A DNA stretch of 64,000 nt, taken from positions 2,394-66,393 of the forward strand of contig WRPG01000021.1 in the NCBI GenBank assembly GCA_009773355.1, in the 5' to 3' direction. Both the position numbers and the translations under genes were made by a program. Source of the stretch: Limisphaerales bacterium. Lineage in GTDB: Bacteria > Verrucomicrobiota > Verrucomicrobiia > Limisphaerales > SXTU01. This document shows, one piece after another, positions 7,144 through 62,719 of the stretch; within the stretch, counting starts at the first letter, position 1; each line of letters starts with the position of its first letter. The notes under the pieces were generated by a model. It saw only the letters and a program-made list of their open reading frames with translations, was not told the DNA's origin and made no database searches.

Positions 7144-7294
7144 GGCGTGGAGCGCGGCCTTCAGGCCGCAGCAGGCAGCATGGCCACAGCGCTTCCGACC
7201 ACGGGAGTCATCCGCGCGTTTCTGCGGCATGAACGCCGCGCTCCAAAGCCGGCGCTTGCCGCCCCTTGGCCGCTCCGCTACAGGTGAGCATCGT

Positions 7295-13292: not shown

Positions 13293-13455
13293 TGCGCTGC
13301 CTGGACATCTGATGCGTTCTCCCTCACCCCGTCCCTCTCCCGCTGGGAGAGGGAGGATTACAGCCCGCTGCGGCGACAGGTCAGTGCGCTGCGTGAAGAC
13401 GAATGCGCTCGTGGCTGTTCCCTCTCCCGGCGGGAGAGGGTCAGGGTGAGGGGGA
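13159..13455. repeat. Cluster of four GGGAGAGGG-type hairpin repeats (REP-like)
   Basis: ccctctccctttgcgaagcaaggggagaggg+ccggggtgagggg (13159-13203); ccttctcccctcgctccgcgaagggagaagg (13252-13282); ccctcaccccgtccctctcccgctgggagaggga (13321-13354, opposite orientation); tccctctcccggcgggagagggtcagggtgaggggg (13419-13455). Confidence 0.8.
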
Positions 13456-13465
13456 AAGGCCGCGC

Positions 13466-19240: not shown

Positions 19241-19407
19241 TCCGCGATTTCGGCCCTTGAACCTGCCCAGCGGATGGAGCGCGGGACTCCGGCCCGCAGC
19301 GGCCACCTCAACCCGGGGGGCGCTGCGGATATTCGCACGGTGGCTGGCGCAAGTTGCCGCTGCGGCCCGGAGGGCCGCGCTCCGGTTCAGGGGCCGAAAT
19401 CGCGGGA
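19241..19407. repeat. Long imperfect palindrome (~167 nt) in a 400-bp intergenic gap
   Basis: tccgcgatttcggcccttgaacc...gagcgcgggactccggcccgcagcggc pairs with gccgctgcggcccggagggccgcgctccggttcaggggccgaaatcgcggga. About 50 bp of potential stem. Confidence 0.65.
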
Positions 19408-25959: not shown

Positions 25960-27300
25960 TCAACCCCGCTTTGCCGCCTGCCACTCGTTCAAGCCCCGCT
26001 CTCCCGCCGCCGCGTCCAGGCCGAGCAGCTCCATCGCCTCGCCGATGAGGTAGAGCGAGCCTGCAACCAGCGCCCGCGGCTCGTCCGTCAAGGCCGCGAG
26101 CGCGTCCCGGGCCGACTCATGCGCCGTGACCCGCGCCGCCGGATTTGCCCGGCGGCAAAACTCCGCCAGCGCCGCCGGCTCCAGCGACCGGTTGCTGCCC
26201 ACCCGCACCGCCGCGATGCGCCGCGCCAGCGGGGCCAGTTCCCGGCACATGAGTTCGCAGTCCTTGTCCGCCAGCATCCCCACGAGGAGGGCGAAGGGCT
26301 GGCCGCCAAACTCGCCCTTCAGCGCCGTCACCAGTGCGCGAACGCCGTCGGAGTTGTGCGCGCCGTCGAGGAGAAACTCCCTCCCGCCCACCTTCGCCAC
26401 CTGCAAGCGCCCGGCCCACTGAACCGCTTCCAGCCCGCGCCAAAGCGCCGGCTCGCTCACCGGCAGCGTGGCCTGCAACGCCCGCACCACTGCCACCGCG
26501 AGCGCCGCGTTCCGGCGCTGGTGCGCCCCGCGCAACGGCAGCGCGACCGGAGCGCCGGTTTCCAAACCGGCTTTGCGTTCCTCCGCGACGAGCGTGAAGG
26601 GCGCTCCACACCGCTCCGCGGCGTCACGGATCACCGCCACCGCCTCCGGCGCGTCCGTCGCCGTGAGCACCGGCACGCGCGGCTTGATGATGCCCGCCTT
26701 CTCCGCCGCGATCTTCGCCAGCGTGTCCCCGAGCCACTGTTGATGGTCGAAGGCGATGTTCGTGATGACGCTCGCCAGCGGCGTCACGATGTTTGTCGCA
26801 TCCAGCCGCCCACCCAGCCCGGTCTCCCAAATCACCAGATCGCACTTCTGCTCCGCGAAATACTTCAGCGCCATGACCGTGATGAACTCGAAGAGTGTCG
26901 GTGGAGAGTTGGGGGAGTGATTAGTAATTAGTGATTGAGTGTTTGGTGGGGCGGCGGCGGCTGGCTGACTATTTACCAAACACTGATTACTAATTACTTC
27001 TTCCACCAACCGCGCCACGTCCGCCTCGCTGATCAACTCCCGATCCACCTGTATCCGCTCGCGGAACGAAACCAGATGCGGCGATGTGAACAGCCCCACG
27101 CGCAAACCCGCCGTCCGGTAAATGCTCTCCAGCATCGCGCAGGTGGAGCCTTTCCCATTTGTTCCTGCCAAATGGATGAACCGCAGCCGGTCCTGCGGAT
27201 TGCCCAGTGCCGCCGCCAGCCGCCGCGTCGTCTCCAGGCCGAACTGCGCGCCAAAGACGGCCAGCCCGTGCAGGTAATCCAGCGCTTCCGCGTAAGTCAT
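25960..27300 (-). CDS. folC: Bifunctional folylpolyglutamate synthase / dihydrofolate synthase
   Basis: P-loop HLAGTNGKGST, FTSPHLVSFRERI, WETGLGGRLDATNIV, NIAFDHQQWLG. ATG at 27300 (TTG at 27309 is an alternative). Confidence 0.88.
   Translation of the reverse strand: MTYAEALDYLHGLAVFGAQFGLETTRRLAAALGNPQDRLRFIHLAGTNGKGSTCAMLESIYRTAGLRVGLFTSPHLVSFRERIQVDRELISEADVARLVEEVISNQCLVNSQPAAAAPPNTQSLITNHSPNSPPTLFEFITVMALKYFAEQKCDLVIWETGLGGRLDATNIVTPLASVITNIAFDHQQWLGDTLAKIAAEKAGIIKPRVPVLTATDAPEAVAVIRDAAERCGAPFTLVAEERKAGLETGAPVALPLRGAHQRRNAALAVAVVRALQATLPVSEPALWRGLEAVQWAGRLQVAKVGGREFLLDGAHNSDGVRALVTALKGEFGGQPFALLVGMLADKDCELMCRELAPLARRIAAVRVGSNRSLEPAALAEFCRRANPAARVTAHESARDALAALTDEPRALVAGSLYLIGEAMELLGLDAAAGERGLNEWQAAKRG
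26917..26997. repeat. 81-nt AT-rich heptamer-based palindrome embedded in frame in folC
   Basis: gtgattagtaattagtgattgagtgtttggt ... accaaacactgattactaattac (arms differ at about 3 of 24 positions). Encodes ISNQCLVNSQPAAAAPPNTQSLITNHS between conserved FolC blocks. Confidence 0.8.
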
Positions 27301-27321: not shown

Positions 27322-28101
27322 TCAAACCCGCTCCAGCAACACCAGAAACTCCTTGTTCCCCGCCGGCCCCAGCAATGGCGATTCCGTCACGCCGCGCCAC
27401 GCGGTGCCCGGCAGGTCGGACTTCACAAACGCTTCCAGCTCCGCCAGCACGCGCGCATGAACCACCGGGTCCGTGATCACGCCCTCGCCCTTGTCCGCCT
27501 CCGCCTTGCCCGCCTCGAACTGCGGCTTCACAAGCGCCACGATGCGCCCGTCGGGAGCCAGCAGCGCCACCGCCGCCGGCAGAATCTTGCGCAGGGAAAT
27601 GAACGAGCAATCCACCACCACCAGCGGGACTGCGAACACGCCTTCATTCCGCATTCCACATTCTGCACTCCGCATTTGACCGAGCCGCTCCGCCGTCAGC
27701 TCCCGGGCATTCGTCTTCTCCAGCACCACCACGCGCGGGTCGTTGCGCAGCTTCCACGCGAGCTGCCCCTGCCCCACGTCCACCGCGAAGACCCGCGCCG
27801 CGCCGCGTTGCAGCAGGCAATCGGTGAAGCCGCCCGTGCTCGCGCCGAGGTCCACCGCCGTCAGCCCGCGCACGTCGAGAGCGAAGTGCTCCAGCGCGTG
27901 CTCCAGCTTGTGCCCGCCCCGGCTCACGAACTTCTCCGTCGCCTCGAGCGCGAGCGTGTCGGCCTCGCGCACGAGATCGCTGGCCTTGCGGGCGACCTGG
28001 CCGTTCACGCGCACCAGTCCGGCCATCACGGCGCGCTTGGCCTTCTCGCGGCTTTCGCAAAGCCCGCGCGCCACCAACGCCTGATCCAGCCGCGAATTCA
28101 T
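27322..28101 (-). CDS. tlyA: TlyA-family rRNA 2'-O-methyltransferase (S4 domain + FtsJ-like MTase)
   Basis: MNSRLDQALVARGLCESREKAKRAVMAGLVRVNG (S4), FVSRGGHKLEHAL, AVDLGASTGGFTDCLLQRGA, DCSFISLRKILP, LVKPQFEAG. Confidence 0.88.
   Translation of the reverse strand: MNSRLDQALVARGLCESREKAKRAVMAGLVRVNGQVARKASDLVREADTLALEATEKFVSRGGHKLEHALEHFALDVRGLTAVDLGASTGGFTDCLLQRGAARVFAVDVGQGQLAWKLRNDPRVVVLEKTNARELTAERLGQMRSAECGMRNEGVFAVPLVVVDCSFISLRKILPAAVALLAPDGRIVALVKPQFEAGKAEADKGEGVITDPVVHARVLAELEAFVKSDLPGTAWRGVTESPLLGPAGNKEFLVLLERV
27645..27679. repeat. Five tandem heptamers (cattccg cattcca cattctg cactccg catttga) inside tlyA
   Basis: 7-nt periodicity read directly from the sequence. Encodes QMRSAECGMRNEG, in a loop that is much shorter in TlyA proteins I recall. 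Confidence 0.7.
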
Positions 28102-28216: not shown

Positions 28217-28972
28217 CTACTTCCCCTGCCCCGTCGGCGGTTTCGCGGCCGGCAGCAAGGTGATGCTCACCTCCACGACCGTGTCCAGCGGCGGCACGTC
28301 CTGTTTGCGCACAACCCAAGTATCGTCCGCATCGCGGTTCGGGCGCGAGTGGTTGAAGACCGCGTCGAGGTCCGTGATGAGCGCGATGACTGAGCCTTCC
28401 GTCTGCGCGATGAATTTGCCCTGCCAGACGCGCGAACCGGTGAAGGTGAACGGCCCCTTGCTCATCGGCTCCTTCGCCCGCTTGTTGAAGACGAGTTCCT
28501 CGATCCGCCGGCGCTGCGGCTTGCCGTCCTGCGTCCACGTCACCTCAACCAACACCGGCTCGCCGGGCAGCGGCGGGTTGCGCTCGCCGGCCGGTGATTG
28601 CGTGATGGGGCCGCCCGCGGGCGCGTTGGTGAGCGGAGCGGCCTGCATCCCCTTCGCGCCGAGGAGGAGCATCGCGACCTGCAAGTGATGCGGCGCGATG
28701 TCCGTCTTGAGCACGCTTTCGTGGAGTTTGCCCTGGCCGGTGACGAGCAGGTATTCGAGCGGGCCGTCGGTCATGTTGAGCTTGGCCGGCAGGGACACGC
28801 GGCGCGCGGCCTTCTCCAGCTTCACGCCGCCGACTTGGAAGACGCCGGGCGAAACTTCGCGGATGCTCGGCGGGGTGGGCGGCTTCTCCGCCGGCAAACC
28901 CGGGGGCTGTTGAGCCGACAGGGAAATCACCAGCGCGCACAACAGCGGCAAGAAGGAGTGCAAGTTCATCAT
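28217..28972 (-). CDS. Secreted protein, YdjY-domain-like (tentative)
   Basis: Signal peptide MMNLHSFLPLLCALVISLSAQ. Block LPAKLNMTDGPLEYLLVTGQGKLHESVL...LQVAMLLLGAKG resembles PVC proteins annotated as YdjY domain-containing (from memory). Confidence 0.5.
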   Translation of the reverse strand: MMNLHSFLPLLCALVISLSAQQPPGLPAEKPPTPPSIREVSPGVFQVGGVKLEKAARRVSLPAKLNMTDGPLEYLLVTGQGKLHESVLKTDIAPHHLQVAMLLLGAKGMQAAPLTNAPAGGPITQSPAGERNPPLPGEPVLVEVTWTQDGKPQRRRIEELVFNKRAKEPMSKGPFTFTGSRVWQGKFIAQTEGSVIALITDLDAVFNHSRPNRDADDTWVVRKQDVPPLDTVVEVSITLLPAAKPPTGQGK

Positions 28973-29029: not shown

Positions 29030-29106
29030 GGTAGCAGCCGACGTGAGGAGGCTCTGATTCACTGGAGAATCGGATTGAAGTGAGCCTCCTCACGTCGGCT
29101 GCTACC
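29030..29106. repeat. Perfect 25-bp-arm palindrome (family shared with 41622-41692)
   Basis: ggtagcagccgacgtgaggaggctc - 27-nt loop - gagcctcctcacgtcggctgctacc, in the divergent intergenic region. Confidence 0.9.
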
Positions 29107-29178: not shown

Positions 29179-32100
29179 ATGAGCCAACGTCTCTGCCTGT
29201 TCCTCGCCGCGCTTGCCACCGCGCTTCAGCCGCTGCGCGCGCAAGACGCCGCCAAGGAAGCCCAGTTCCTCACCAACACGCGCCAACTCATCTTCGAAGG
29301 CCGGCGCAGCGGCGAAAGCTACTTCTCGGCCGACGGCAAGTTCATGGTCTTTCAGAGCGAGCGCGAGGCGGACAATCCCTTCTACCAGATTTACCTGCTG
29401 AACCTGGAGACCGGCGACGTGAACCGCGTCTCACCCGGCACCGGCAAGACCACCTGCGCCTTCCTCCGCCCCGGCAGCGACGACGTGCTCTTCGCGAGCA
29501 CCCACACCGATCCTGAGGCGAAGACCAAGCAGAAGGCCGAGTTCGAAATCCGCGCTTCCGGCAAGTCCCGCCGCTACGCGTGGGACTACGACGACCGCAT
29601 GGAAATCTTCGTGTCCAAACGCGACGGCTCGAACATCCGCCGGCTCACCGACGCTCCCGGCTACGATGCCGAGGGCAGCTACTCGCCGGACGGCAAGCTC
29701 ATCGTCTTCTGCTCGCTGCGCCATGCCTACACCGGCACGCTCTCGCCCGAGGACAAGAAGAAGCTCGAAGTGGACACCGCCTACTTCGGCGACATCTACC
29801 TGATGAACGCCGACGGCTCGAACGTCCGCCGCCTCACCAGCACCCCCGGCTACGATGGCGGGCCGTTCTTCTCCCCCGACGGCCAGCGTGTCATCTGGCG
29901 GCGATTCAACGAGAAGGGCGACACGGCGGACGTCTACACGATGAAACTCGACGGCTCCGACGTGCGCCGCCTCACCGACTTCGGCGCGATGTCCTGGGCG
30001 CCCTACTTCCACCCGTCCGGCCAATACGTCATCTACACGGCGAACAAGCACGGCTTTGGCAACTTCGAGCTGTTCCTCGTGGACGCTCTCGGCGCGAAGG
30101 AACCCGTGCGCGTGACCCACACCGACGGCTTCGACGGCCTGCCGGTCTTCTCCCCCGACGGCAAGAAACTGGCGTGGACCAGCGGCCGCACGCCGGAGAA
30201 AAACTCGCAGGTCTTCATGGCGGACTGGAACCACACGGCGGCGCTGGCGGCACTGGCACAAGCGCCGAAGCGGAGCGGAACCACGCCGGAGCTGTCACTG
30301 CAGAGAATCAAGGCTCAGGGTTTGATCAGCGTTGGGGCCCTTACCGCAGAGAGTCTTCTTCAACTCCAAAGTTATAATCCGGAAATACGTGAAGCGGATT
30401 TGCGTGGCCATGTTGGGTTTCTCGCCAGCGAGTCACTCCAAGGTCGGCTCACGGGCTCGCTCGGCGCACTAAAAGCCGCTAACTACATAGCCGAAAACTT
30501 CAAGCTCTCCGGCCTTGCTCCACTCCCGTCCGTCAGCGACTTCTTCCAACCCTTCGAGTTCAGCTCCGGCGTCCGAGTGCTGACGAATCAGAATACCGCC
30601 TCGCTCCGTGCCAGCGCTAATGCCACGCCCGCCACGCTTGCACTCGACAAGGACTTCCGCCCCCTTGCCTTCACGGCGAACGGCACCGTGGAGGGGGAAG
30701 TCGTCTTCGCCGGCTACGGCCTCTCCGTGCCTGGCAAGCTCGGGGAAGGCTATGACTCTTACAACGGCCTCGACGTGTCGAACAAGGTCGTGCTCGTGCT
30801 GCGTTACGTGCCGGAGGAAGCCGACGCCAAGCGCCGCCAGGAGCTGAACCGCTACGCCGGCCTGCGCTACAAGGCCCTCATTGCGCGCAATCGCGGCGCG
30901 AAAGCCCTGCTCGTCGTCACCGGCCCCACGTCCCCGAACGCGGGCGAACTGGCGCGGCTGACCTTCGAGACCGGTGCGAGCCACAGCGGCATCGTCTGCG
31001 CCAGCATCGGCGGCGACGTGGCGGCGAAGATGTTCACTGCCGCGGGCAAGGATTTGAAGAAGACGCAGGCCGCGCTCGACAAGGAAGACCCGCACGCGGA
31101 AGGAGCTTTCGCGCTGAAGAACGTCGCCGTGAAGCTCACCGCCGCCGTCGAGCATGTGAAGAAGGCGGACCGTAACGTCCTCGCGCACATCCCGCCTGTC
31201 GGCACCAAGGAGTATGTCATCGTCGGCGCGCATTACGACCACCTCGGCCACGGCGAGACCGGCGGCTTCGCGCGCAAGGACGAGGAAGGCAAGGTCCACC
31301 CCGGCGCGGATGACAACGCCAGCGGCACCGCCGCGCTGCTCGAACTCGCTGGAGCGCTAGCCGAAGAATTTCGGAGCGCAGGTGTCCAACCTGCGTCCGG
31401 TTCCAGCGCGCCGAAAGCCGTGGCAAACGCAGGTTGGACACTTGCGCTCCGGCGCGGCGTGCTCTTCGCCGCCTGGTCTGGCGAGGAAGTCGGCTTGATC
31501 GGCTCCTCGCACTTCGCCGAGAAGCCGCCGCTCCCGCTCTCGAACGTCGTCGCCTACGTGAACTTCGACATGGTCGGCCGCCTGCGCGACAACAAGCTGA
31601 GTCTCCAGGGCATCGGCTCCTCCCCTACGTGGCGGAAGCTGATCGAGAAGCGCAACGTCGCCGCCGGCTTCAATCTGGCCTTGCAGGAAGACCCGTATCT
31701 GCCCACCGACACCACGCCCTTCTATCCGAAGAACGTGCCGGTCATCGCCTTCTTCACCGGCAGTCACGAGGAGTATCACCGGCCCGCCGACAAGCCCGAC
31801 ACGCTGAACTACGACGGCCTCGAACGCATCGCCAAGTTCGCCCGCGCCCTCATCACCGACCTCGCCTCGGGTGCCGAGCGCCCGGCCTACGCGAAGGTCG
31901 AGAAGAAGGACGGCGGCGGCGGCCGCGAGCAGCTCCGCGCCTACCTCGGCACCATCCCCGACTACGCTCAGGAAGTAGCCGGCGTGAAGCTGAGCGGCAC
32001 CCGCGGCGGCAGCCCCGCCGACAAGGCCGGGCTGAAGGGTGGCGACGTCATCGTCGAATTCGCCGGCCAGAAGATTGCCAACATCTACGACTACACCTAT

Positions 32101-32199
32101 GCCATCGAGGCCGTGAAAATCGGCCAACCGGTGAAAATCATCGTCCTCCGCGACGGCAAACGCGTGGAACTCACCGTGACGCCAGAGGTGCGGAAGTGA
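29179..32199 (+). CDS. Secreted TolB-like beta-propeller / M28 aminopeptidase / PDZ fusion protein
   Basis: Signal peptide MSQRLCLFLAALATALQPLRAQ. PD40-type repeats (YFSADGKFMVF, SYSPDGKLIVF, FFSPDGQRVIW, VFSPDGKKLAW). M28 motifs VGAHYDHLGHG, HPGADDNASGTAALLELA, SGEEVGLIGS. C-terminal PDZ GSPADKAGLKGGDVIVEFAG. Confidence 0.85.
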   Translation: MSQRLCLFLAALATALQPLRAQDAAKEAQFLTNTRQLIFEGRRSGESYFSADGKFMVFQSEREADNPFYQIYLLNLETGDVNRVSPGTGKTTCAFLRPGSDDVLFASTHTDPEAKTKQKAEFEIRASGKSRRYAWDYDDRMEIFVSKRDGSNIRRLTDAPGYDAEGSYSPDGKLIVFCSLRHAYTGTLSPEDKKKLEVDTAYFGDIYLMNADGSNVRRLTSTPGYDGGPFFSPDGQRVIWRRFNEKGDTADVYTMKLDGSDVRRLTDFGAMSWAPYFHPSGQYVIYTANKHGFGNFELFLVDALGAKEPVRVTHTDGFDGLPVFSPDGKKLAWTSGRTPEKNSQVFMADWNHTAALAALAQAPKRSGTTPELSLQRIKAQGLISVGALTAESLLQLQSYNPEIREADLRGHVGFLASESLQGRLTGSLGALKAANYIAENFKLSGLAPLPSVSDFFQPFEFSSGVRVLTNQNTASLRASANATPATLALDKDFRPLAFTANGTVEGEVVFAGYGLSVPGKLGEGYDSYNGLDVSNKVVLVLRYVPEEADAKRRQELNRYAGLRYKALIARNRGAKALLVVTGPTSPNAGELARLTFETGASHSGIVCASIGGDVAAKMFTAAGKDLKKTQAALDKEDPHAEGAFALKNVAVKLTAAVEHVKKADRNVLAHIPPVGTKEYVIVGAHYDHLGHGETGGFARKDEEGKVHPGADDNASGTAALLELAGALAEEFRSAGVQPASGSSAPKAVANAGWTLALRRGVLFAAWSGEEVGLIGSSHFAEKPPLPLSNVVAYVNFDMVGRLRDNKLSLQGIGSSPTWRKLIEKRNVAAGFNLALQEDPYLPTDTTPFYPKNVPVIAFFTGSHEEYHRPADKPDTLNYDGLERIAKFARALITDLASGAERPAYAKVEKKDGGGGREQLRAYLGTIPDYAQEVAGVKLSGTRGGSPADKAGLKGGDVIVEFAGQKIANIYDYTYAIEAVKIGQPVKIIVLRDGKRVELTVTPEVRK
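31373..31450. repeat. 78-nt palindrome embedded in frame in the M28 peptidase gene (family shared with 45382-45448)
   Basis: ggagcgcaggtgtccaacctgcgt - loop - acgcaggttggacacttgcgctcc (1 mismatch in 24). Encodes RSAGVQPASGSSAPKAVANAGWTLAL between the conserved ADDNASGTAALLELA and FAAWSGEEVG blocks. Confidence 0.85.
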
Positions 32200-33024: not shown

Positions 33025-33034
33025 CGGCGGGGGC

Positions 33035-33129
33035 AGTATTCAGTAATCAGCGTTCAGTTTCCAGTAGGCAGTTTCCTGAGGTCGCACGGCTTGCCGCCAC
33101 TGAACACTGAAAACTGCTTGCTGAATACT
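33035..33129. repeat. Heptamer-periodic hairpin in a divergent promoter region
   Basis: Left arm tattcag taatcag cgttcag tttccag taggcag (NNNNcag x5). Right arm tgaacac tgaaaac tgcttgc tgaatac (tgNNNNc x4; with the preceding c each unit reads ctgNNNN). The arms are imperfectly complementary. Confidence 0.75.
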
Positions 33130-33186
33130 TCCTTGCTGGCCGCTGATTGCTAACCGCTCCCTCCCCGCCTACTCTGCTCACCAGCG

Positions 33187-35990: not shown

Positions 35991-36671
35991 ATGGCAAAGA
36001 TATTGGTCGTGGATGACGAACCGGATGCCGTTGAACTGGTCGAGTTCAACTTGAAGAACGCCGGCTTCGAGGTGGTCACGGCGGCGGATGGCGCAGAGGC
36101 GCTCAAGAAGGCGCGCGCGGCGCTGCCCGATCTCATCGTGCTGGACCTGATGATTCCCGAGGTGGACGGCTTGGAGGTGTGCAAGCTGCTGCGGCGCGAC
36201 GCGGCCACGGCGGGTATCCCCATTCTCATGCTCACGGCGAAGGCGGCGGAGATTGACCGTGTGCTGGGCCTCGAACTCGGCGCGGACGATTACGTGACCA
36301 AGCCGTTCAGCCCGCGCGAGCTGATGCTGCGCATCAAGGGCCTGCTGCGTCGCCGCGAGACGACCGAGGCCAAGGCGGAGCGGATGCAGTTCGGCGACCT
36401 TGTGCTCGACGTGCCCGCGCACAGCCTCACGGTGAACAACAAGCGCGTGGAGCTGACCGCCACGGAGTTCAAGCTGCTCACCATCCTCGCGCAGCGGCGC
36501 GGCCGGGTGCAATCGCGCGACCAGTTGCTCAAGGACGTGTGGGAATACGACAACGTCATAGACACGCGCACCGTGGACACGCACATGCGGCGGCTGCGGG
36601 AGAAGCTGGGCAAGGCGGCGAAGCACTTGGATACCGTGCGAGGGGTCGGCTATCGCTTTGTGGCGGGGTGA
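35991..36671 (+). CDS. OmpR/PhoB-family response regulator
   Basis: MAKILVVDDEPD...DLIVLDLMIPEVDG...LTAK (REC) and winged-helix output LTATEFKLLTILAQRRGRVQSRDQLL...VDTHMRRLREKL...VRGVGYRF. Confidence 0.9.
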   Translation: MAKILVVDDEPDAVELVEFNLKNAGFEVVTAADGAEALKKARAALPDLIVLDLMIPEVDGLEVCKLLRRDAATAGIPILMLTAKAAEIDRVLGLELGADDYVTKPFSPRELMLRIKGLLRRRETTEAKAERMQFGDLVLDVPAHSLTVNNKRVELTATEFKLLTILAQRRGRVQSRDQLLKDVWEYDNVIDTRTVDTHMRRLREKLGKAAKHLDTVRGVGYRFVAG

Positions 36672-36749
36672 GACGTAATGCGTAATGCGTAAAACGTAAG
36701 GGCCACCGGCGCTCGACGCCCTGCTTGGTTACGTTTTACGTTTTACGTC
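36672..36749. repeat. cgtaaNN/NNttacg heptamer hairpin between response regulator and kinase genes
   Basis: cgtaatg cgtaatg cgtaaaa cgtaagg - 25-nt spacer - ggttacg ttttacg ttttacg. Starts 1 nt after the regulator stop codon. Confidence 0.85.
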
Positions 36750-36778
36750 TCCCCTCCTTCCCAGCCATTCTCCACCCG

Positions 36779-40981: not shown

Positions 40982-43900
40982 TCAGCCTTTTGCAATCATC
41001 TCGTCGAGGTTCAAAAGCGCGCGGGCGAGGGCGGTCCAGGCGGCGCGGTCGTTGGCGTCGCCATCGCCTTTGCCGGCGAAGTCGGCGGCCTTGAGTTCGC
41101 CGCTGGCGAAGCGGGCGCGTTGGGTCTCGAAGAACTTCACGAGTTGGGCGCGTTCGTTGGCAGTGGGCGGGCGGGTGAGGCAGCGGCGGAAGAGGGTTTC
41201 CACACGGGTCTCGATGCTGCCGGGCTGCGCGGCGAGCTGGCGGCCGAGGGCTTGGGCGGCTTCGAGGATGACGGTGTCATTGAGCAGGGTGAGCGCTTGG
41301 AGCGGCGTGTTCGAGACGTCGCGGCGGGCGACGCAGGCTTCGCCGCTGGGGCCGTCGAAGGTGTTGAACATCGCGTAGGGCGCGGAGCGTTTGGCGAAGG
41401 TGTAGAGGCCGCGGCGGTAGCGGTCTTCGCCCTTGCTCTCGTCCCATGACTTGCCGCCATACACGCCTTCCTGCGTGACGCTCGCGGGCTGCGGCGGGAA
41501 GACGCTCGGCCCGCCAATCTTCGGCGAAAGCAGCCCGCTCGCGCGCAGGACGGAATCGCGGATGAGTTCGGCGTCGAGGCGTGAGCGGGGGAAGCGGGAG
41601 AGCAGGCGGTTGTCGGGGTCGGTAGCCGCCGAGGTGAGGAGGCGGATTGGTGGCGTGGAAGGTTCAGTCCGCCTCCTGACCTCGGCGGCTACAGCGCTGC
41701 TCTGCTGGTAAGTGGCGCTGGTCACGATGAGCTTGTGCAACAGCTTCAGCGACCAGTCATGCTTCATGAACTCCACCGCCAGCCAGTCGAGCAGCTCCGG
41801 GTGCGTCGGCGCGTCGCCTTGCAGACCGAAGTCCTCGGTGGTGCGCACGAGGCCGCGCCCGAAGAACGCGGCCCACTGGCGGTTCACGGTGACGCGCGCA
41901 GTGAGCGGGTTCTCGGGCGAGACGAGCCATTGCGCGAAGCCGAGGCGGTTCTTTGGGGCGGCGGCTGGCAATGGGTTCAAGACGCCGAGCACGGTGGGCG
42001 CGACGGCTTCCTTCGGCGACAGAAACTCGCCGCGATGATGGCGGTGCGTGGGGCGCGGGTTCTCCAGCGGGCGCTCGCGCAAGACGAGGGTGGTCTGGTG
42101 GACGGGCGGTTTGCGCAAGCGCTCGATTTCAGCCCGCGCGGATTTCAGCTCGGGCGCGACGAGGAGGAATTGTTCGCGGAGCTTGGCGCGTTGGGCGGTG
42201 GTGAGTTGCGCCTCGGGCACGCGGAGCAACGCCTCGGCCTCCTCGGTCAACTCACTGGCGGCGGCCTGCGCTTCGGTCGTGGCGGAGAGGCGGAACCGGC
42301 CCAGCGAACAGGCGTAATGGCGGCCAAACTGAAGCAGCACTTCAAGGTCGCCAGTCGCTGCGAGCGGTTGGTCGAAGTGGAAAACCGCGACGTGTCGTTC
42401 GCCAAAGCGCTCGAAGACACCCCAACCCGTTTCGGGGTTGCCATCAATCGCCAGCGCTGCGGACGACCTGTCACCGCCGAGCCAGAGCTTCGCATAGGTC
42501 TGTGATGCCCGGGCGAGCTTCACGGGCTGGCTGGCTGCCTTCACGCGGAATTCACCGAGGAAGAAATCGCCTTTGGGACCTTCGTAATACGCCATGCCTG
42601 GCCCGTGCGCGGGCAGGCGGTCGTCGGGCAAGGCTTCGAGGCGAAGCGCGGCGGTTCCGGCTAGAACGCTCTTGAAGCGAAGTGTGTAAGTGTCGTTCTT
42701 GCTGATGTCTCCGCTCGCGAAGATGGAGCTGTCTGGCTGCACCGTGAGGAGCGGGAGGTTGGACTTGGCTTCGTCGGGGCGGAGTGTCGTCCACGTCACG
42801 ACGCGGGCGCGCTCGGCTTTGAGCCATGTGGCAAATCTCCTTTCCAGATGCTTGGCTCCCGGCACCGGCGGAGTGGAGTTTGTGTCCGCCGGAAACTGTC
42901 TCGGCAGCCCGGCCAGCAGGGTGGCGGCGCGCTCCAGATTCTTGCGGTGCAGTTCATCCAGCGCCGCGTCGGGCAGGTCCTGGTCCGGCTCGTCGGCGTT
43001 GTTGAGGAAGGCCATCACGCCGTAATACTCCGTCTGGGGAATGGGATCGAACTTGTGCGTGTGGCACTGCGCGCACATCAGTGTCAGGCCCAGCCAGGTT
43101 GTGCCGGTGGTGGCCACGCGGTCGGCCATCGCGTAGAAGCGGAACTCCAGCGGGTCAATGCCGCCTTCCTCATTCAGCATCGTGTTTCGGTGGAAGCCCG
43201 TCGCGACGAGCGGGTCCAAACCTTGAACCTTGAACCTTGAACCTTGAACTGCTGGCAAGAGGTCGCCGGCGAGCTGCTGGATGGTGAACTGGTCGAAGGG
43301 AAGGCCCTCGTTCAGCGCGCGGATGACCCAGTCGCGCCAAGGCCAAATGTTGCGCGGGCGGTCTTTCTCGTAGCCGTTGGTGTCGGCGTAGCGGGCGAGG
43401 TCGAGCCACTTGCGCGCCCAGCGTTCGCCGTAGTGCGGGGAGGCGAGCAGTTTGTCCACGAGCGCGGCGATGACCTTCAGCTCACTTTCCCGCCTTCTCA
43501 CCTGCCCACTTTCGCCGGCAGCCGGTGAGAAAGTGGGAGAGCGGGAAAGTGAGAGCTGGCGCACGAAGTCATCGGCTTCCTCCGGCGTCGGCGGCAGGCC
43601 GATGAGGTCGAGGTAAAGGCGGCGGACGAGCGTGTAGTCGTCGGCGGGTGGCGACGGCTTCAAGCCTTCCTTCTCCAGCCGCGCGAGGATGAAGTGGTCA
43701 ATGGCGTTCTGCGGCCAGCCGGCTTGCTTCACCTTCGGCAATGCAGCCTGCTTCGGTTTGATGAACGCCCAGTGCGGCTGGTAATCCGCTCCGGAGGCGA
43801 CCCAGCGGCGGAACGTGTCCATCTCGGCGGGCGTGAGGTGCTTCTTCGTCTCCGGCGGCGGCATGACCTTGTTGTGGTCGGTGCTGGTGATGCGGCGGAC

Positions 43901-44158
43901 GAGTTCGCTCTGGTCGGGCTTGCCGGGGACGAGGGCGCGCTTGCCGGACTTGGCCGGCTTGAGCGCGGCCTCGCGGAGGTCGAGGCGGAGGCCGGCCTTG
44001 CGCGCGTGTTCATCCGGCCCGTGGCAGGCGAAACACTGGCGAGAGAGAATGGGGCGGACATCGCGCTGAAAATCCGGCGCGGGCGCGGCGGCGAAGATTG
44101 GTAGCGCGCCCAGCAGGGCGGCGAAAGCGGTGGCAAATGGTTTCACGCGGCGAATCAC
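40982..44158 (-). CDS. PSCyt1-DUF1549-DUF1553 (PSD1) protein
   Basis: GTG start at 44158 gives MIRRVKPFATAFAALLGALPIFAAAPAP. Heme-like CFACHGPDEH. DUF1549 block LVRRLYLDLIGLPPTPEE. DUF1553 block CAQCHTHKFDPI. The longer ORF to 45046 overlaps the ApbE gene and is R/A/P-rich. Confidence 0.85.
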   Translation of the reverse strand: MIRRVKPFATAFAALLGALPIFAAAPAPDFQRDVRPILSRQCFACHGPDEHARKAGLRLDLREAALKPAKSGKRALVPGKPDQSELVRRITSTDHNKVMPPPETKKHLTPAEMDTFRRWVASGADYQPHWAFIKPKQAALPKVKQAGWPQNAIDHFILARLEKEGLKPSPPADDYTLVRRLYLDLIGLPPTPEEADDFVRQLSLSRSPTFSPAAGESGQVRRRESELKVIAALVDKLLASPHYGERWARKWLDLARYADTNGYEKDRPRNIWPWRDWVIRALNEGLPFDQFTIQQLAGDLLPAVQGSRFKVQGLDPLVATGFHRNTMLNEEGGIDPLEFRFYAMADRVATTGTTWLGLTLMCAQCHTHKFDPIPQTEYYGVMAFLNNADEPDQDLPDAALDELHRKNLERAATLLAGLPRQFPADTNSTPPVPGAKHLERRFATWLKAERARVVTWTTLRPDEAKSNLPLLTVQPDSSIFASGDISKNDTYTLRFKSVLAGTAALRLEALPDDRLPAHGPGMAYYEGPKGDFFLGEFRVKAASQPVKLARASQTYAKLWLGGDRSSAALAIDGNPETGWGVFERFGERHVAVFHFDQPLAATGDLEVLLQFGRHYACSLGRFRLSATTEAQAAASELTEEAEALLRVPEAQLTTAQRAKLREQFLLVAPELKSARAEIERLRKPPVHQTTLVLRERPLENPRPTHRHHRGEFLSPKEAVAPTVLGVLNPLPAAAPKNRLGFAQWLVSPENPLTARVTVNRQWAAFFGRGLVRTTEDFGLQGDAPTHPELLDWLAVEFMKHDWSLKLLHKLIVTSATYQQSSAVAAEVRRRTEPSTPPIRLLTSAATDPDNRLLSRFPRSRLDAELIRDSVLRASGLLSPKIGGPSVFPPQPASVTQEGVYGGKSWDESKGEDRYRRGLYTFAKRSAPYAMFNTFDGPSGEACVARRDVSNTPLQALTLLNDTVILEAAQALGRQLAAQPGSIETRVETLFRRCLTRPPTANERAQLVKFFETQRARFASGELKAADFAGKGDGDANDRAAWTALARALLNLDEMIAKG
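41622..41692. repeat. 25-bp-arm palindrome inside the DUF1553 coding region (same family as 29030-29106)
   Basis: gtagccgccgaggtgaggaggcgga - loop - tccgcctcctgacctcggcggctac (1 mismatch). Translated as AAEVRRRTEPSTPPIRLLTSAAT. Confidence 0.85.
43221..43248. repeat. Four tandem ccttgaa heptamers inside the DUF1549 region
   Basis: ccttgaa x4 read directly. Translated as VQGSRFKVQG just before the conserved ATGFHRN block. Confidence 0.85.
43478..43558. repeat. 81-nt imperfect palindrome inside the DUF1549/DUF1553 gene
   Basis: cagctcactttcccgccttctcacctgcccactttc ... gagaaagtgggagagcgggaaagtgagagctg. ctcactttcccgc pairs with gcgggaaagtgag. Translated as QLSLSRSPTFSPAAGESGQVRRRESEL. Confidence 0.7.
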
Positions 44159-45381: not shown

Positions 45382-45448
45382 GGAGCGCAGGTGTCCAACC
45401 TGCGCGAGGTAACCGGACACGAACGCGCAGGATGGACTCCTGCGCTCC
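45382..45448. repeat. Palindrome of the ggagcgcagg-gtcca-cctgcg family (intergenic copy)
   Basis: ggagcgcaggtgtccaacctgcgcg - loop - cgcgcaggatggactcctgcgctcc. The first 22 nt are identical to the left arm of the copy inside the M28 peptidase gene (31373). Confidence 0.85.
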
Positions 45449-46461: not shown

Positions 46462-46494
46462 CACAGGAAAGGAACCGCAATGTCGGCACTTTGA

Positions 46495-46588
46495 AGTAGG
46501 ACAGTGCGTCCCGCCTGTCTTTCTGATTTCAGATCCCGCTCAAGCGGTTTCCTTCAAATGGTAGGCAGGCTGGAAGCACTGTCCTACT
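46495..46588. repeat. ~95-nt palindrome-ended element, copy B of 3
   Basis: agtaggacagtgcgtcccgcctgtc...ccgctcaagcgg...ggcaggctggaagcactgtcctact. The TAG stop of the 46584..48002 gene lies in the terminal arm. Confidence 0.85.
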
Positions 46589-48002
46589 TAACGAACGCGT
46601 AGAGTGCCGTGAGCGTGCGGACGTATATCACGTTTTCCACCAGCGCGGGCGAGGCGGAGATGCGTTCGCTGAATTCCGCCTGGTGCAGAATCTTCGGCGC
46701 GTCGCCGCCGGCATCGAGGACCGTGACCTTGCCGTTCAGCGACGCCACGTAGATGCGCCCGTCCGCCGCGACGGGCGACGCGTAGTAGCTGCCGATGGCG
46801 TTGAGCCGCTCCTGCTGGTAGTGGACCTTGCCCGTCTTCGCGTCGAAGCTCGACGCCAGCCCGCCGTCCTTCACAAGGAAGACGCGGCCGCGATAGTGCA
46901 GCGCCGACGGCACGTAGGGCAGGCCGCGCGTCTGCTTCCACGCCAAGGCGTCCTCGCTCAACTCGCCCTTGCCGCCGGGCTTCACGGCCACCAGCACGTT
47001 CTCGCCCTTGGCCATGTTGGCCGCCAGGGCATCCATGTCTTCTTTGGTGATTTTGCCGTCGCGGTTCACGTCCAGCGAGCGGAAGAACGATTCCATCTCC
47101 GTGCCCTTCATCTCGTCCGGCGTGAGCGCGCCGTCCTTGTTTTTGTCCATCTGCGACATCCCGGCCCACGTCGGCATCGTGTTGGCCTCCTTGCCCGGTG
47201 CCCAGCCGGCGAAGAAGAGCAGGCCGTCGCCGACCACCGGAGTTGTGCAGGTGAAGGACGGCAAGCCCGCCAGCGACCACCGTTCCGCGCCGGTCTTGAG
47301 GTCATAGGCCTTGAGCTTGATGGAGCCGGACATGACGACCTCGTCCACGCCCGCGCTCTTCCAGAGAATCGGCGTGCCGAAGCCGGGACCGACATCTGTG
47401 CGCGGGGCTTCCCATGCTTTCTTGCCGGTCTTCAAGTCCACCGCCAGCAGCGAGCAAGGCCCGGCCTGGTCGCGGTTCACGAGCACCACGCCGCCCGCGA
47501 GCACGGGCGAACCGCCGGAGCCGAAGCTGCCGGGCGACTGGATGGTCGGGAGCTTGTGCTGCCAGAGTTCCTTGCCGCTGAAGTCGTGGGCCACCAGCCC
47601 GGACGAGCCGAAGTAACTGATGACGGTCTTGCCATCGGTTGCGGGAGTGGATGCGGCGGGGCTGCCCTCGGTGGCGTGGAATTCTTCAAGCTGCCCGGCG
47701 GGCGCGGGGCGCTTCCAGAGCAGCTTGCCATCGCGCCGCGCGTAGCAGTGCGTCTCCAGCTTCTTGCCGTCGAAGGTCGTGAGGAAAATCCGGTCGCCCC
47801 ACACGCACGGCGAGGACGCGCCCGAGGGCACGATGTTTTTCCAAAGCTGATTCTTGCCAGGGCCGAACTCGACGGGCGGCTTGGCGGTGTCGGAGACGCC
47901 GGACGCGTTTGGCCCGCGGAACTGCGGCCACCAGGTTTCGGCGGCGAAGAGCGCGGTGTGGACAACGAAGCAGAGGGTGAGGAACAGGGTTTTCACTTTC
48001 AT
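46584..48002 (-). CDS. PQQ-like (BamB-type) beta-propeller protein with an inserted EF-hand pair
   Basis: Signal peptide MKVKTLFLTLCFVVHTALFAA. Repeated propeller strands (SSPCVWGDRIFL, GSPVLAGGVVLV, TTPVVGDGLLFF, ASPVAADGRIYV). Canonical Ca-binding loops DKNKDGALTPDE and DVNRDGKITKED. Confidence 0.8.
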   Translation of the reverse strand: MKVKTLFLTLCFVVHTALFAAETWWPQFRGPNASGVSDTAKPPVEFGPGKNQLWKNIVPSGASSPCVWGDRIFLTTFDGKKLETHCYARRDGKLLWKRPAPAGQLEEFHATEGSPAASTPATDGKTVISYFGSSGLVAHDFSGKELWQHKLPTIQSPGSFGSGGSPVLAGGVVLVNRDQAGPCSLLAVDLKTGKKAWEAPRTDVGPGFGTPILWKSAGVDEVVMSGSIKLKAYDLKTGAERWSLAGLPSFTCTTPVVGDGLLFFAGWAPGKEANTMPTWAGMSQMDKNKDGALTPDEMKGTEMESFFRSLDVNRDGKITKEDMDALAANMAKGENVLVAVKPGGKGELSEDALAWKQTRGLPYVPSALHYRGRVFLVKDGGLASSFDAKTGKVHYQQERLNAIGSYYASPVAADGRIYVASLNGKVTVLDAGGDAPKILHQAEFSERISASPALVENVIYVRTLTALYAFVK

Positions 48003-48079
48003 GGCGGCGGGATTATGCGGAAGGACGCGCGGGAGGCAAGTGTGCGGCGGTGGCATGATGGCACTTTTCGAGTTGCTCA

Positions 48080-48174
48080 AGTAGGACAGCACGTCTCGCC
48101 TGTCCCTCTGACTTTCTGTTTCCGCTCAAGCGGGGCGTTTCAAATGGAGGACAGGCTGGAAGCACTGTCCTACT
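48080..48174. repeat. ~95-nt palindrome-ended element, copy C of 3
   Basis: agtaggacagcacgtctcgcctgtc...ccgctcaagcgg...gacaggctggaagcactgtcctact. Ends 1 nt before the TGA stop of the PfkB kinase gene. Confidence 0.85.
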
Positions 48175-48175
48175 T

Positions 48176-49197: not shown

Positions 49198-49298
49198 GAC
49201 GGAATGCGTAATGGGTAATGCGTAAAACGTAAGGCGGGCGTTTGAACCCGTGACGCGCGTGGTGACTGGGTTACGCATTACGTTTTACGTTTTACTCC
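49198..49298. repeat. cgtaaNN/NNttacg heptamer hairpin
   Basis: cggaatg cgtaatg ggtaatg cgtaaaa cgtaagg - spacer - ggttacg cattacg ttttacg ttttact. Fills the whole gap between two co-oriented genes. Confidence 0.85.
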
Positions 49299-49299
49299 T

Positions 49300-50478
49300 T
49301 CACCACTTGTAGCGCGGTTCGGGGTTCGGGTCGCCGATGTCGGGGATGTCCTTCGTCGCGGTGCGGCCGTGCAGCGTTTCCAGCTTGTGGAAGAGGTGAT
49401 GGAGGAAGGCCACGTTGTCACACTGCGCGTAGTGCATCGCGCCGCCCATGCGCGAGAAGCTCTTGCAGAAGCGGAGGTAGTAGGCCGGGTTGTCGCGTGG
49501 CGGCTCGCCCTGGGTCCAGTCCCAGTTGCCGCCGTCCTGCAAGTCCACGACGTAGATGCTGTGGCCGCTGACGATGGGGCGGCCCGCTTGCAGGCGGAGG
49601 TTGTTCACGCAACTGATGCTCTTCTCGAATACCTGCGGCCCCATGATGGCCGAGCCGACGCTCAGCACCACGCCGCCATCGAGCTTCTCCACCGAGCCGC
49701 CGAACAGCGCGAAGTCCACGCCCGCCGCGCGACCGATGACGCCGCCGTTGAACCAAGGGTGGTTCGAGATGATGTCGTAGCCGATGCCGGGGTGGACGGT
49801 GAAGGGCACTTCGTGCCGCGCGGCTTGAGCAAGCACGCTGCTGTTGCGGTGCGGGTGCGCGACGATCTGTGGGCCTGGCTTGAGTCCGAAGCGCTGGATG
49901 GCTTGCAGCAAGTCCGCGCGCGCGGGCGTGAGCGGGTGGCCCGGCTCGGCTTGAATTTGCTTTGTCAGCTCGGCCTCGGTCGGGATGAAGCCGCCGTCCT
50001 CGTAGATGAACTTGCCGAGCGATTTGCCGTAGCCGAAGCCGCGCACGCCGCCGAGCAGCAGCGCGAGGTGGATGTAGCGCCCCGTCTCGTCCCAGGTGCC
50101 GAAGCTGCCGGTGGCGACGTTGTCACGCACGCTCTCGGTGGAGCGGCCCAGCCAAGAGAACTCCCAGTCGTGAATCGTTCCGGCACCGTTCGTTGCGAGG
50201 TGAGTGAGGAATCCGCGGTCGAGCATCTGGCCGAGCAGGAGTTGCCCACCGTTCTTCACGAGATGCGCGCCGTAGATGAACATGACCGCCGCGCCACGCT
50301 CGAGCGCGGCCTTGATGTCGCGGGCGCAGCGCTCGATGAGCGCGGCGTTGAAGTCGCTGACGGGCGGTGGCGTGTTCGTCGGCTCGATGAGCACCTCGTC
50401 CACCGTGCTCAGGCTTTTGCGCTGCGCGAGCGGGAACACGCGGACTTTGGAGAGGTCGAGAGGGTCGGGAGATTGCAT
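49300..50478 (-). CDS. Deoxyhypusine-synthase-like family protein (distant, tentative)
   Basis: ATG at 50478 (MQSPDPLDLSKV...). AAVMFIYGAHLVKNGGQLLLGQMLDRGFLTHLATNGAGTIHDWE parallels the DHS block FLGYTSNLISSG...VDVLVTTAGGVEED. VPFTVHPGIGYDII and GVVLSVGSAIMGPQVFE parallel later DHS blocks (from memory). Confidence 0.45.
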   Translation of the reverse strand: MQSPDPLDLSKVRVFPLAQRKSLSTVDEVLIEPTNTPPPVSDFNAALIERCARDIKAALERGAAVMFIYGAHLVKNGGQLLLGQMLDRGFLTHLATNGAGTIHDWEFSWLGRSTESVRDNVATGSFGTWDETGRYIHLALLLGGVRGFGYGKSLGKFIYEDGGFIPTEAELTKQIQAEPGHPLTPARADLLQAIQRFGLKPGPQIVAHPHRNSSVLAQAARHEVPFTVHPGIGYDIISNHPWFNGGVIGRAAGVDFALFGGSVEKLDGGVVLSVGSAIMGPQVFEKSISCVNNLRLQAGRPIVSGHSIYVVDLQDGGNWDWTQGEPPRDNPAYYLRFCKSFSRMGGAMHYAQCDNVAFLHHLFHKLETLHGRTATKDIPDIGDPNPEPRYKW

Positions 50479-62640: not shown

Positions 62641-62719
62641 CGCGTGATGCGTAAGACGTGAAACGTAAAACGTATGGGTGTTGGGCGTCCGCTTACGTTT
62701 TACGCATTACGCATTACGC
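62641..62719. repeat. cgtaaNN/NNttacg heptamer hairpin
   Basis: cgtgatg cgtaaga cgtgaaa cgtaaaa cgtatgg - spacer - gcttacg ttttacg cattacg cattacg. Confidence 0.85.

Follow-up and report, generated by a model that had tools for sequence, protein, structure and literature searches.

GTAG- and CGTC-tagged REP superfamilies were defined by Di Nocera, De Gregorio and Rocco in 2013, in work that also describes the folding of REP dimers into larger structures and the flanking of RAYT genes by REPs (PMC3733652). The REPIN concept, together with the association of REPINs with RAYTs, comes from Bertels and Rainey (PMC3116915). In Opitutus terrae, GTAG REP doublets lie in frame in known genes, where they encode 20-30 residues and sometimes occur more than once per gene (PMC3733652). 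A search of the REPIN/RAYT literature from 2017 onward found no paper that mentions Verrucomicrobia.

Against this background, two palindromes in the window, that is, the whole 64-kb stretch of DNA analysed here, are in all likelihood REPINs of a verrucomicrobial GTAG-REP/RAYT system, one of which is tolerated in frame within a protein linker. The two elements, referred to as copies A and B, and the genes around them are as follows.

28217-28972, minus strand: gene to the left of copy A, directed away from it; YdjY-like in syntenic orthologous loci
29030-29106, no strand assigned: REPIN copy A, with left REP arm 29030-29054, spacer 29055-29081 and inverted right arm 29082-29106
29179-32199, plus strand: gene for a PD40/M28 peptidase/PDZ protein, to the right of copy A and directed away from it
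40982-44158, minus strand: host gene of copy B, PSCyt1-PSCyt2(DUF1549)-PSD1(DUF1553), intact, 1058 aa as called in public assemblies
41622-41692, minus strand: REPIN copy B, in frame as VAAEVRRRTEPSTPPIRLLTSAAT

The original prediction placed one palindrome family at both sites, and both its coordinates and its main measurements hold. The arms of copy A, predicted to be perfect over 25 bp, are indeed 25 bp long and 100% complementary, with 27 nt between them, and those of copy B extend to 28 bp at 93% complementarity, with 15 nt between. Between the two left arms, identity is 21/25 (84%, where about 85% had been estimated by eye) and 20/22 in the core, by our own count from the sequences. The 22-nt arm core common to both copies, GTAGCNGCCGASGTGAGGAGGC, has exactly four matches in the window at up to three mismatches, namely the arms of copies A and B, whereas 0.01 matches are expected from shuffled sequence; all four arms begin with GTAG. 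On the plus strand, copies A and B fold at -64 and -62 kcal/mol, respectively, and comparison with shuffled sequence gives z = -10.9 and -11.9 for copy A and z = -9.2 and -8.8 for copy B. The spacers of the two copies are unrelated, and the arms represent the two prominent subtypes of the family: GTAGCAGCC...GGCTC in copy A and GTAGCCGCC...GGCGGA in copy B, the latter with a G/G mismatch as its loop-closing pair. Since the copies belong to different arm subtypes, one common mobilising enzyme is not required.

The anatomy of the arm emerges from 112 distinct sequences, in which conservation reaches 90% or more in each of columns 1-4, the GTAG head. A GTNA loop (GTGA, GTAA or GTCA) caps a stem of seven positions, formed by 6-12 with 17-23, that reads N-GCC-GA-C ... 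G-GA-GGC-N'. All seven stem pairs show changes on both sides across the 112 arms; pair 6-23, for example, is C-G in 51 arms, A-U in 37, U-G in 9, G-C in 3 and G-U in 2, and pair 12-17 is C-G in 69 arms and G-C in 26. The resulting covariation score of 0.276 compares with 0.078 in column shuffles (0/500 reach 0.276) and with at most 0.064 when the partners are slid. Tandem G.A/A.G mismatches occupy the inner stem positions 10-19 and 11-18 in the family of the window arms, whereas G-C and A-T pairs stand there in a sister family, GCCGAC-GTGA-GTCGGC, which adjoins related transposase genes. The GTAG head and the covarying hairpin together identify each arm as a GTAG-headed REP, and two inverted REP arms with a variable spacer constitute a REPIN, which is what copies A and B both are. 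Such inverted doublets make up 96 of 161 elements in the window and the 118 loci listed of at least 118, with a median gap of 29 nt between the 22-nt arm cores in these 96 doublets. Spacers differ among most copies of the window-arm family, and in two loci of one MAG (L037 and L044) spacers and flanks are near-identical. Classic Pseudomonas REPINs have more uniform spacers than the verrucomicrobial copies described here.

A search for the arm across genomes, proposed with the original prediction as a check, found the exact arm GTAGCNGCCGANGTSAGGAGGC in at least 118 stretches (exact matches, one genome per GTDB species), and nearly all matches listed are MAGs labelled Verrucomicrobiota, Limisphaerales or Pedosphaera. 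Several loci may fall within one MAG, for example five in JACRJZ01 and five in SXTU01 among the matches listed, and the source itself holds two REPIN copies in 64 kb. A few arm-bearing MAGs are labelled Bifidobacterium, Klebsiella or Akkermansia (L004, L013, L014, L024, L042 and others); these labels are probably wrong or the bins contaminated, and CAZOCL01 (L014, L166), labelled 'uncultured Klebsiella sp.', encodes a 79%-identical orthologue of the window PSD1 protein. The exact arm also occurs in 11 virus-labelled IMG/VR contigs (L174-L184), mostly as single arms and in two cases with doublets; so small a number of viral stretches, most of them with single arms, does not indicate phage carriage. 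Altogether, the REP family is widespread in Verrucomicrobiota, in Limisphaerales/Pedosphaera-like lineages. This dispersal, the coexistence of coding and intergenic copies, and empty orthologous sites all back the claim that the shared arms mark a mobile or copy-spread element and not independent hairpins.

The empty sites concern copy A, which sits in a 206-bp intergenic region between the divergent genes 28217-28972 (minus strand) and 29179-32199 (plus strand), and around which a scan for promoters and terminators found nothing. In two related loci (L171 and L172), whose peptidases are about 87% identical to that of the window, the flanking intergenic sequence is kept and the REPIN is absent. 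In a third (L170), where peptidase identity is 91%, the first base of the contig already falls within the right arm of the REPIN and the sequence is identical downstream, so that the site is filled. Copy A shows presence/absence polymorphism at an orthologous site, and the start of the L170 contig inside the right arm suggests that REP repeats break short-read assemblies.

These observations also bear on the rival that survives best, although it is improbable: that the palindromes serve a function as hairpins in RNA or DNA, for instance in stabilising mRNA, terminating transcription or binding a protein, and owe their persistence to selection in place, not to transposition. In its favour, many species share a strikingly conserved arm sequence, the hairpins have very high stability, and RNA-level roles have been proposed for REPs (PMC3733652). 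Yet copy A lies between divergent genes without a terminator- or promoter-like site, and its orthologous site is empty in two related lineages. The spacer of one copy bears no relation to that of another, unrelated genes translate the same DNA in one or the other of two frames, and the arms flank a transposase gene. Rfam likewise has no match at gathering score in the window; all that it lists at the E-value threshold are generic miRNA-precursor hairpins, which score far short of their cut-offs.

Transposition of REPINs, the preferred reading, calls attention to the following gene, which belongs to one of the arm-bearing loci of other genomes; the 64 kb of the window hold no RAYT gene.

L011 935-1561: RAYT-like ORF of 208 aa between subtype-A arms, with HUH motif PDHIHLVW and tyrosine motif GYVLMNPV / GYVLMNPVKDGL

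The L011 protein matches NCBIfam REP_Tyr_transpos (NF047646) at E = 7e-12 and 45.4 bits, where the curated cut-off is 80, and Pfam, including Y1_Tnp, returned no match at E <= 0.01, which makes it a distant RAYT relative and not an equivalog. A homologue at L112, 57% identical to it, has subtype-C doublets on both sides. A profile built from the L011 and L112 proteins has a sole match in the PDB, 4ER8_A, which is E. coli TnpA-REP (E = 2.9e-9), and the alignment takes in both motifs. Rhodopirellula baltica has a similar RAYT, RB11751, in a published supplementary alignment (PMC3733652). For 43 metagenome loci, peptide patterns of the RAYT were the sole basis of choice; with arms scored at up to three mismatches, arms adjoin the RAYT gene on one or both sides in 34, nearly all within about 350 bp, and by our own count they stand on both sides in about 24; among the remaining nine, several contigs end at or near the gene, or the flanks are more divergent. 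RAYT proteins in a neighbour-joining tree group by the subtype of the flanking arms. RAYT genes and REPs are associated, and RAYT clades and arm subtypes cluster together.

This association points to the RAYT as the enzyme that moves the REP elements. The cognate RAYT, a Y1 HUH transposase homologous to E. coli TnpA-REP whose own gene is flanked by REPs, is the likely mobilising enzyme. If it acts like enzymes of the IS200/IS605 type, it would cut and rejoin hairpins in single-stranded DNA and leave no target-site duplication. Copy A would have landed in the divergent intergenic region in this way, and copy B would persist as translated filler of about 24 aa because it is stop-free in its frame and the reading frame is kept. 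We know of no published in vivo demonstration of RAYT-driven REPIN transposition.

Less probable still is that the elements are MITEs, whose arms would be the terminal inverted repeats of a DDE-type IS and whose cut-and-paste movement would duplicate the target site. At 60-95 bp, with inverted arms and a short variable core between them, the elements do have a MITE-like shape; however, direct repeats at offsets 0-2, as expected of a target-site duplication, are not above the shuffled-partner control in 94 doublets, the arms are themselves covarying hairpins with a GTAG head, and the sole gene repeatedly flanked by arms is the HUH/Tyr enzyme.

Copy B shows how a REPIN is accommodated inside a gene. 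It lies within a continuous reading frame in which VAAEVRRRTEPSTPPIRLLTSAAT directly precedes DPDNRLL; the Pfam matches of the host protein have E-values from 5e-20 to 2e-98, and its orthologues are 77-83% identical across the full length. For PSD1, 273 residues of the protein correspond to 243 profile positions, consistent with about 30 extra residues. A near-identical orthologue without copy B was sought, and the closest public orthologues are about 82-83% identical. The AlphaFold2 model of the host protein, with a mean pLDDT of 53.7 and values below 50 in the PSD1 domain, is too poor to place the insert. Across 28 aligned orthologues, the linker between IVTSATYQQSS and DPDNRLLSRFPR varies in length and shrinks to 7 residues in distant ones, which show RV-TPELT-AKDP there, in agreement with the expectation that DUF1553 proteins usually have a short linker before DPxNRLL. 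Comparison of the linker DNA in seven orthologues and the window shows that every element starts at the V codon of YQQSS.V, with the following contents.

Window gene: REPIN
P0016: single decayed REP arm of the same family (GTAGAAGCCGACGTGAGGAGGCTC), then CAATCGG x4, with no right arm
P0002: decayed doublet of the same REP family
P0019 and P0004: palindromes of GTCGAAG/GTCGAGA units
P0010: palindrome of TGTTCAG units
P0012: palindrome of GGTTGAA units
P0003: CCCCAGA units

Because the linker contents differ among orthologues, the DUF1553 segment is not conserved as protein; the orthologue alignment thus finds neither a conserved segment nor, given the copies elsewhere, an isolated palindrome. 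Copy B occupies a length-tolerant linker, in which the inserted peptide of about 24 aa is presumably translated and presumably neutral.

Copies inside genes extend well beyond this example. A conservative coding test, under which the frame had to stay open across the element plus 80 codons to either side and GC3 had to lie well above GC2 in both flanks, places 24/141 testable elements (17%) in frame inside genes, and 117/141 did not pass; both intergenic and coding copies, between which the original prediction had proposed to distinguish, therefore occur. Translation of the left arm gives VAADVRR in 7 copies and SSRREEA in 17; that of the right arm gives LLTSAAT in 13, PPHVGGY in 7 and SSPRRL in 2. 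Testing for a frame bias, as the original prediction had proposed, revealed a single effect, in that the TAG-giving frame of the left arm is never used; the other two are both in use. In our own tally, the length from GTAG to CTAC in coding copies falls in all three classes modulo 3. Such frame use fits a simple filter, by which stop-free, frame-preserving copies survive in tolerant loops, and does not fit selection on the peptide. Least credible of all is that selection maintains the peptide of the coding copy, a functional linker module that recombination would have carried between proteins, and that the DNA palindrome is incidental: VAADVRR...LLTSAAT-type peptides do recur in several proteins, but the same DNA is read as different peptides on left and right arms, non-coding copies are in the majority, decay is under way in the orthologous copies of P0016 and P0002, and other orthologues hold unrelated palindromes at the same site.

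With this reading of copies A and B, REPIN-RAYT systems, mainly studied in Proteobacteria, are extended to a large, mostly uncultured group of Verrucomicrobiota, and a sizeable share of their copies is tolerated in frame in ordinary genes, where protein linkers are inflated and diversified. In-frame REPs create spurious low-complexity peptides in databases, and the repeats probably break metagenome assemblies; recognising VAADVRR...LLTSAAT-type signatures as REP-derived would help annotation to avoid over-interpretation.

The linker comparison also raises the speculative and rather unlikely prospect that protein linkers in these Verrucomicrobiota are recurrent landing sites, with unrelated hairpin elements replacing each other at one and the same codon. 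At the V codon of YQQSS.V, at least three families of palindromes or arrays of 7-nt units alternate with REPs in doublet, single-arm or decayed form, and four more in-frame insertions lie in four window genes. Either insertion would be targeted to hairpins, an existing hairpin drawing the next, or the heptamer-repeat palindromes would represent a second, undescribed self-expanding or mobile class that reshapes protein loops. If true, targeting at the linker codon would bear on site choice by single-strand transposases.

Other palindromes and repeats share the window with the two REPINs, and beyond copy B there are further in-frame insertions in four window genes, the PSD1 gene among them. In the PSD1 gene, an unrelated palindrome at 43481-43553 (minus strand), CTCACTTTCCCGC...GCGGGAAAGTGAG, is in frame as QLSLSRSPTFSPAAGESGQVRRRESELK inside the PSCyt2 domain; versions of it occur at the same site in P0013, P0016, P0002 and P0027, and most other orthologues are without it. 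The same gene carries a perfect 7-nt array at 43219-43249, AACCTTG x4.4, in frame as QGSRFKVQG at a site that is length-variable among orthologues. In the M28 peptidase gene 29179-32199, a palindrome of another family, GGAGCGCAGGTGTCCAACCTGCG, is in frame inside the M28 domain at 31372-31451; it is present in P0122, takes a longer form in P0123 and is absent in P0128 and P0125, and its head GGAGCGC recurs at 45382-45448, 19276-19383 and 7148-7245. Two further genes, named from their translations, hold an AGTGATT/AGTAATT palindrome at 26916-26998, in frame as VISNQCLVNSQ...NTQSLITNHS (FolC-like), and a CATTCCG x4.6 array at 27645-27676, in frame as GQMRSAECGMRNEG (TlyA-like). The longest inverted repeat of the window, at 13317-13456, has 38-nt arms, TTCTCCCTCACCCC...GGGAGAGGGA, and stands at the 5' edge of an ORF; sequence related to it is read as SPSPPSGERAGVRGQ in the PSD1 orthologues P0010, P0012, P0014, P0016, P0023 and P0024. 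Another GTAG-headed palindrome family, AAGTAGGACAGTGCGTCCCGCCTGTC, with GTAG followed by a GACAG...CTGTC stem, is found at 46494-46589 and 48079-48175 and could be a further REP family of this genome.

Heptamers are prominent among the tandem repeats of the window: for periods that are not multiples of three, our count of the Tandem Repeats Finder output gives 14 rows of period 7 and two each for periods 5 and 8. Arrays of 7 nt lie at 36661-36767, 49203-49305, 62649-62719 and 33032-33132, often palindromic with their own reverse complement (CGTAATG/CGTAAAA family). Tandem arrays also occur in seven of the 96 REPIN spacers, all of period 7 (L014, L025, L050, L056, L075, L087 and L111).

Among known systems, the cyanobacterial STRR heptanucleotide repeats consist of tandem 7-nt units such as CCCCAGT. 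They resemble the 7-nt arrays in the spacers and palindromes described here, for example CCCCAGA, CAATCGG and CGTAATG; unlike STRRs, many of the present arrays are paired with their own reverse complement as palindromes, and several are in frame in genes. TnpA of IS200/IS605 shares the presumed chemistry, acting on subterminal hairpins in single-stranded DNA without target-site duplication (PMC6006769), but the verrucomicrobial enzyme gene stands outside the repeated unit, and the units are non-autonomous hairpin doublets. Rickettsia palindromic elements are similar in being in-frame palindromic repeats in genes that are still functional (PMC3733652), although their host is an obligate intracellular alphaproteobacterium; RPE-4 and RPE-6 are CGTC-type (PMC3733652), whereas the present elements are GTAG-headed, and the window family, which has no known sequence relation to RPEs and shares with them only the in-frame insertion, is set apart by head type and phylum.

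The E. coli REP/BIME-TnpA-REP and Pseudomonas REPIN-RAYT systems correspond in the GTAG head, the short imperfect hairpin and the inverted doublets, as well as in the HUH/Tyr gene between its own REPs, the co-variation of subtypes and the lack of target-site duplication (PMC3733652, PMC3116915). In contrast to these systems, the verrucomicrobial arm differs in sequence and has a stem with tandem G.A/A.G mismatches; the spacers vary widely and in some cases contain tandem arrays of 7 nt; and the host belongs to the Verrucomicrobiota, the RAYT is distant, and the in-frame intragenic share, at about 17%, is high. The intragenic GTAG REPs of O. terrae match in both phylum and the occurrence of in-frame doublets (PMC3733652). 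The GTAG-18 and GTAG-19 families of that species, however, encode VGPALAAG, GTGVPPV and HGRHARAT (PMC3733652), and the peptides of the window family are absent from the available portion of Additional file 3 of the same study; since the O. terrae families encode other peptides, their sequences differ from that of the window family. The elements described here thus form a new REP family whose behaviour is as already described for Verrucomicrobiota.
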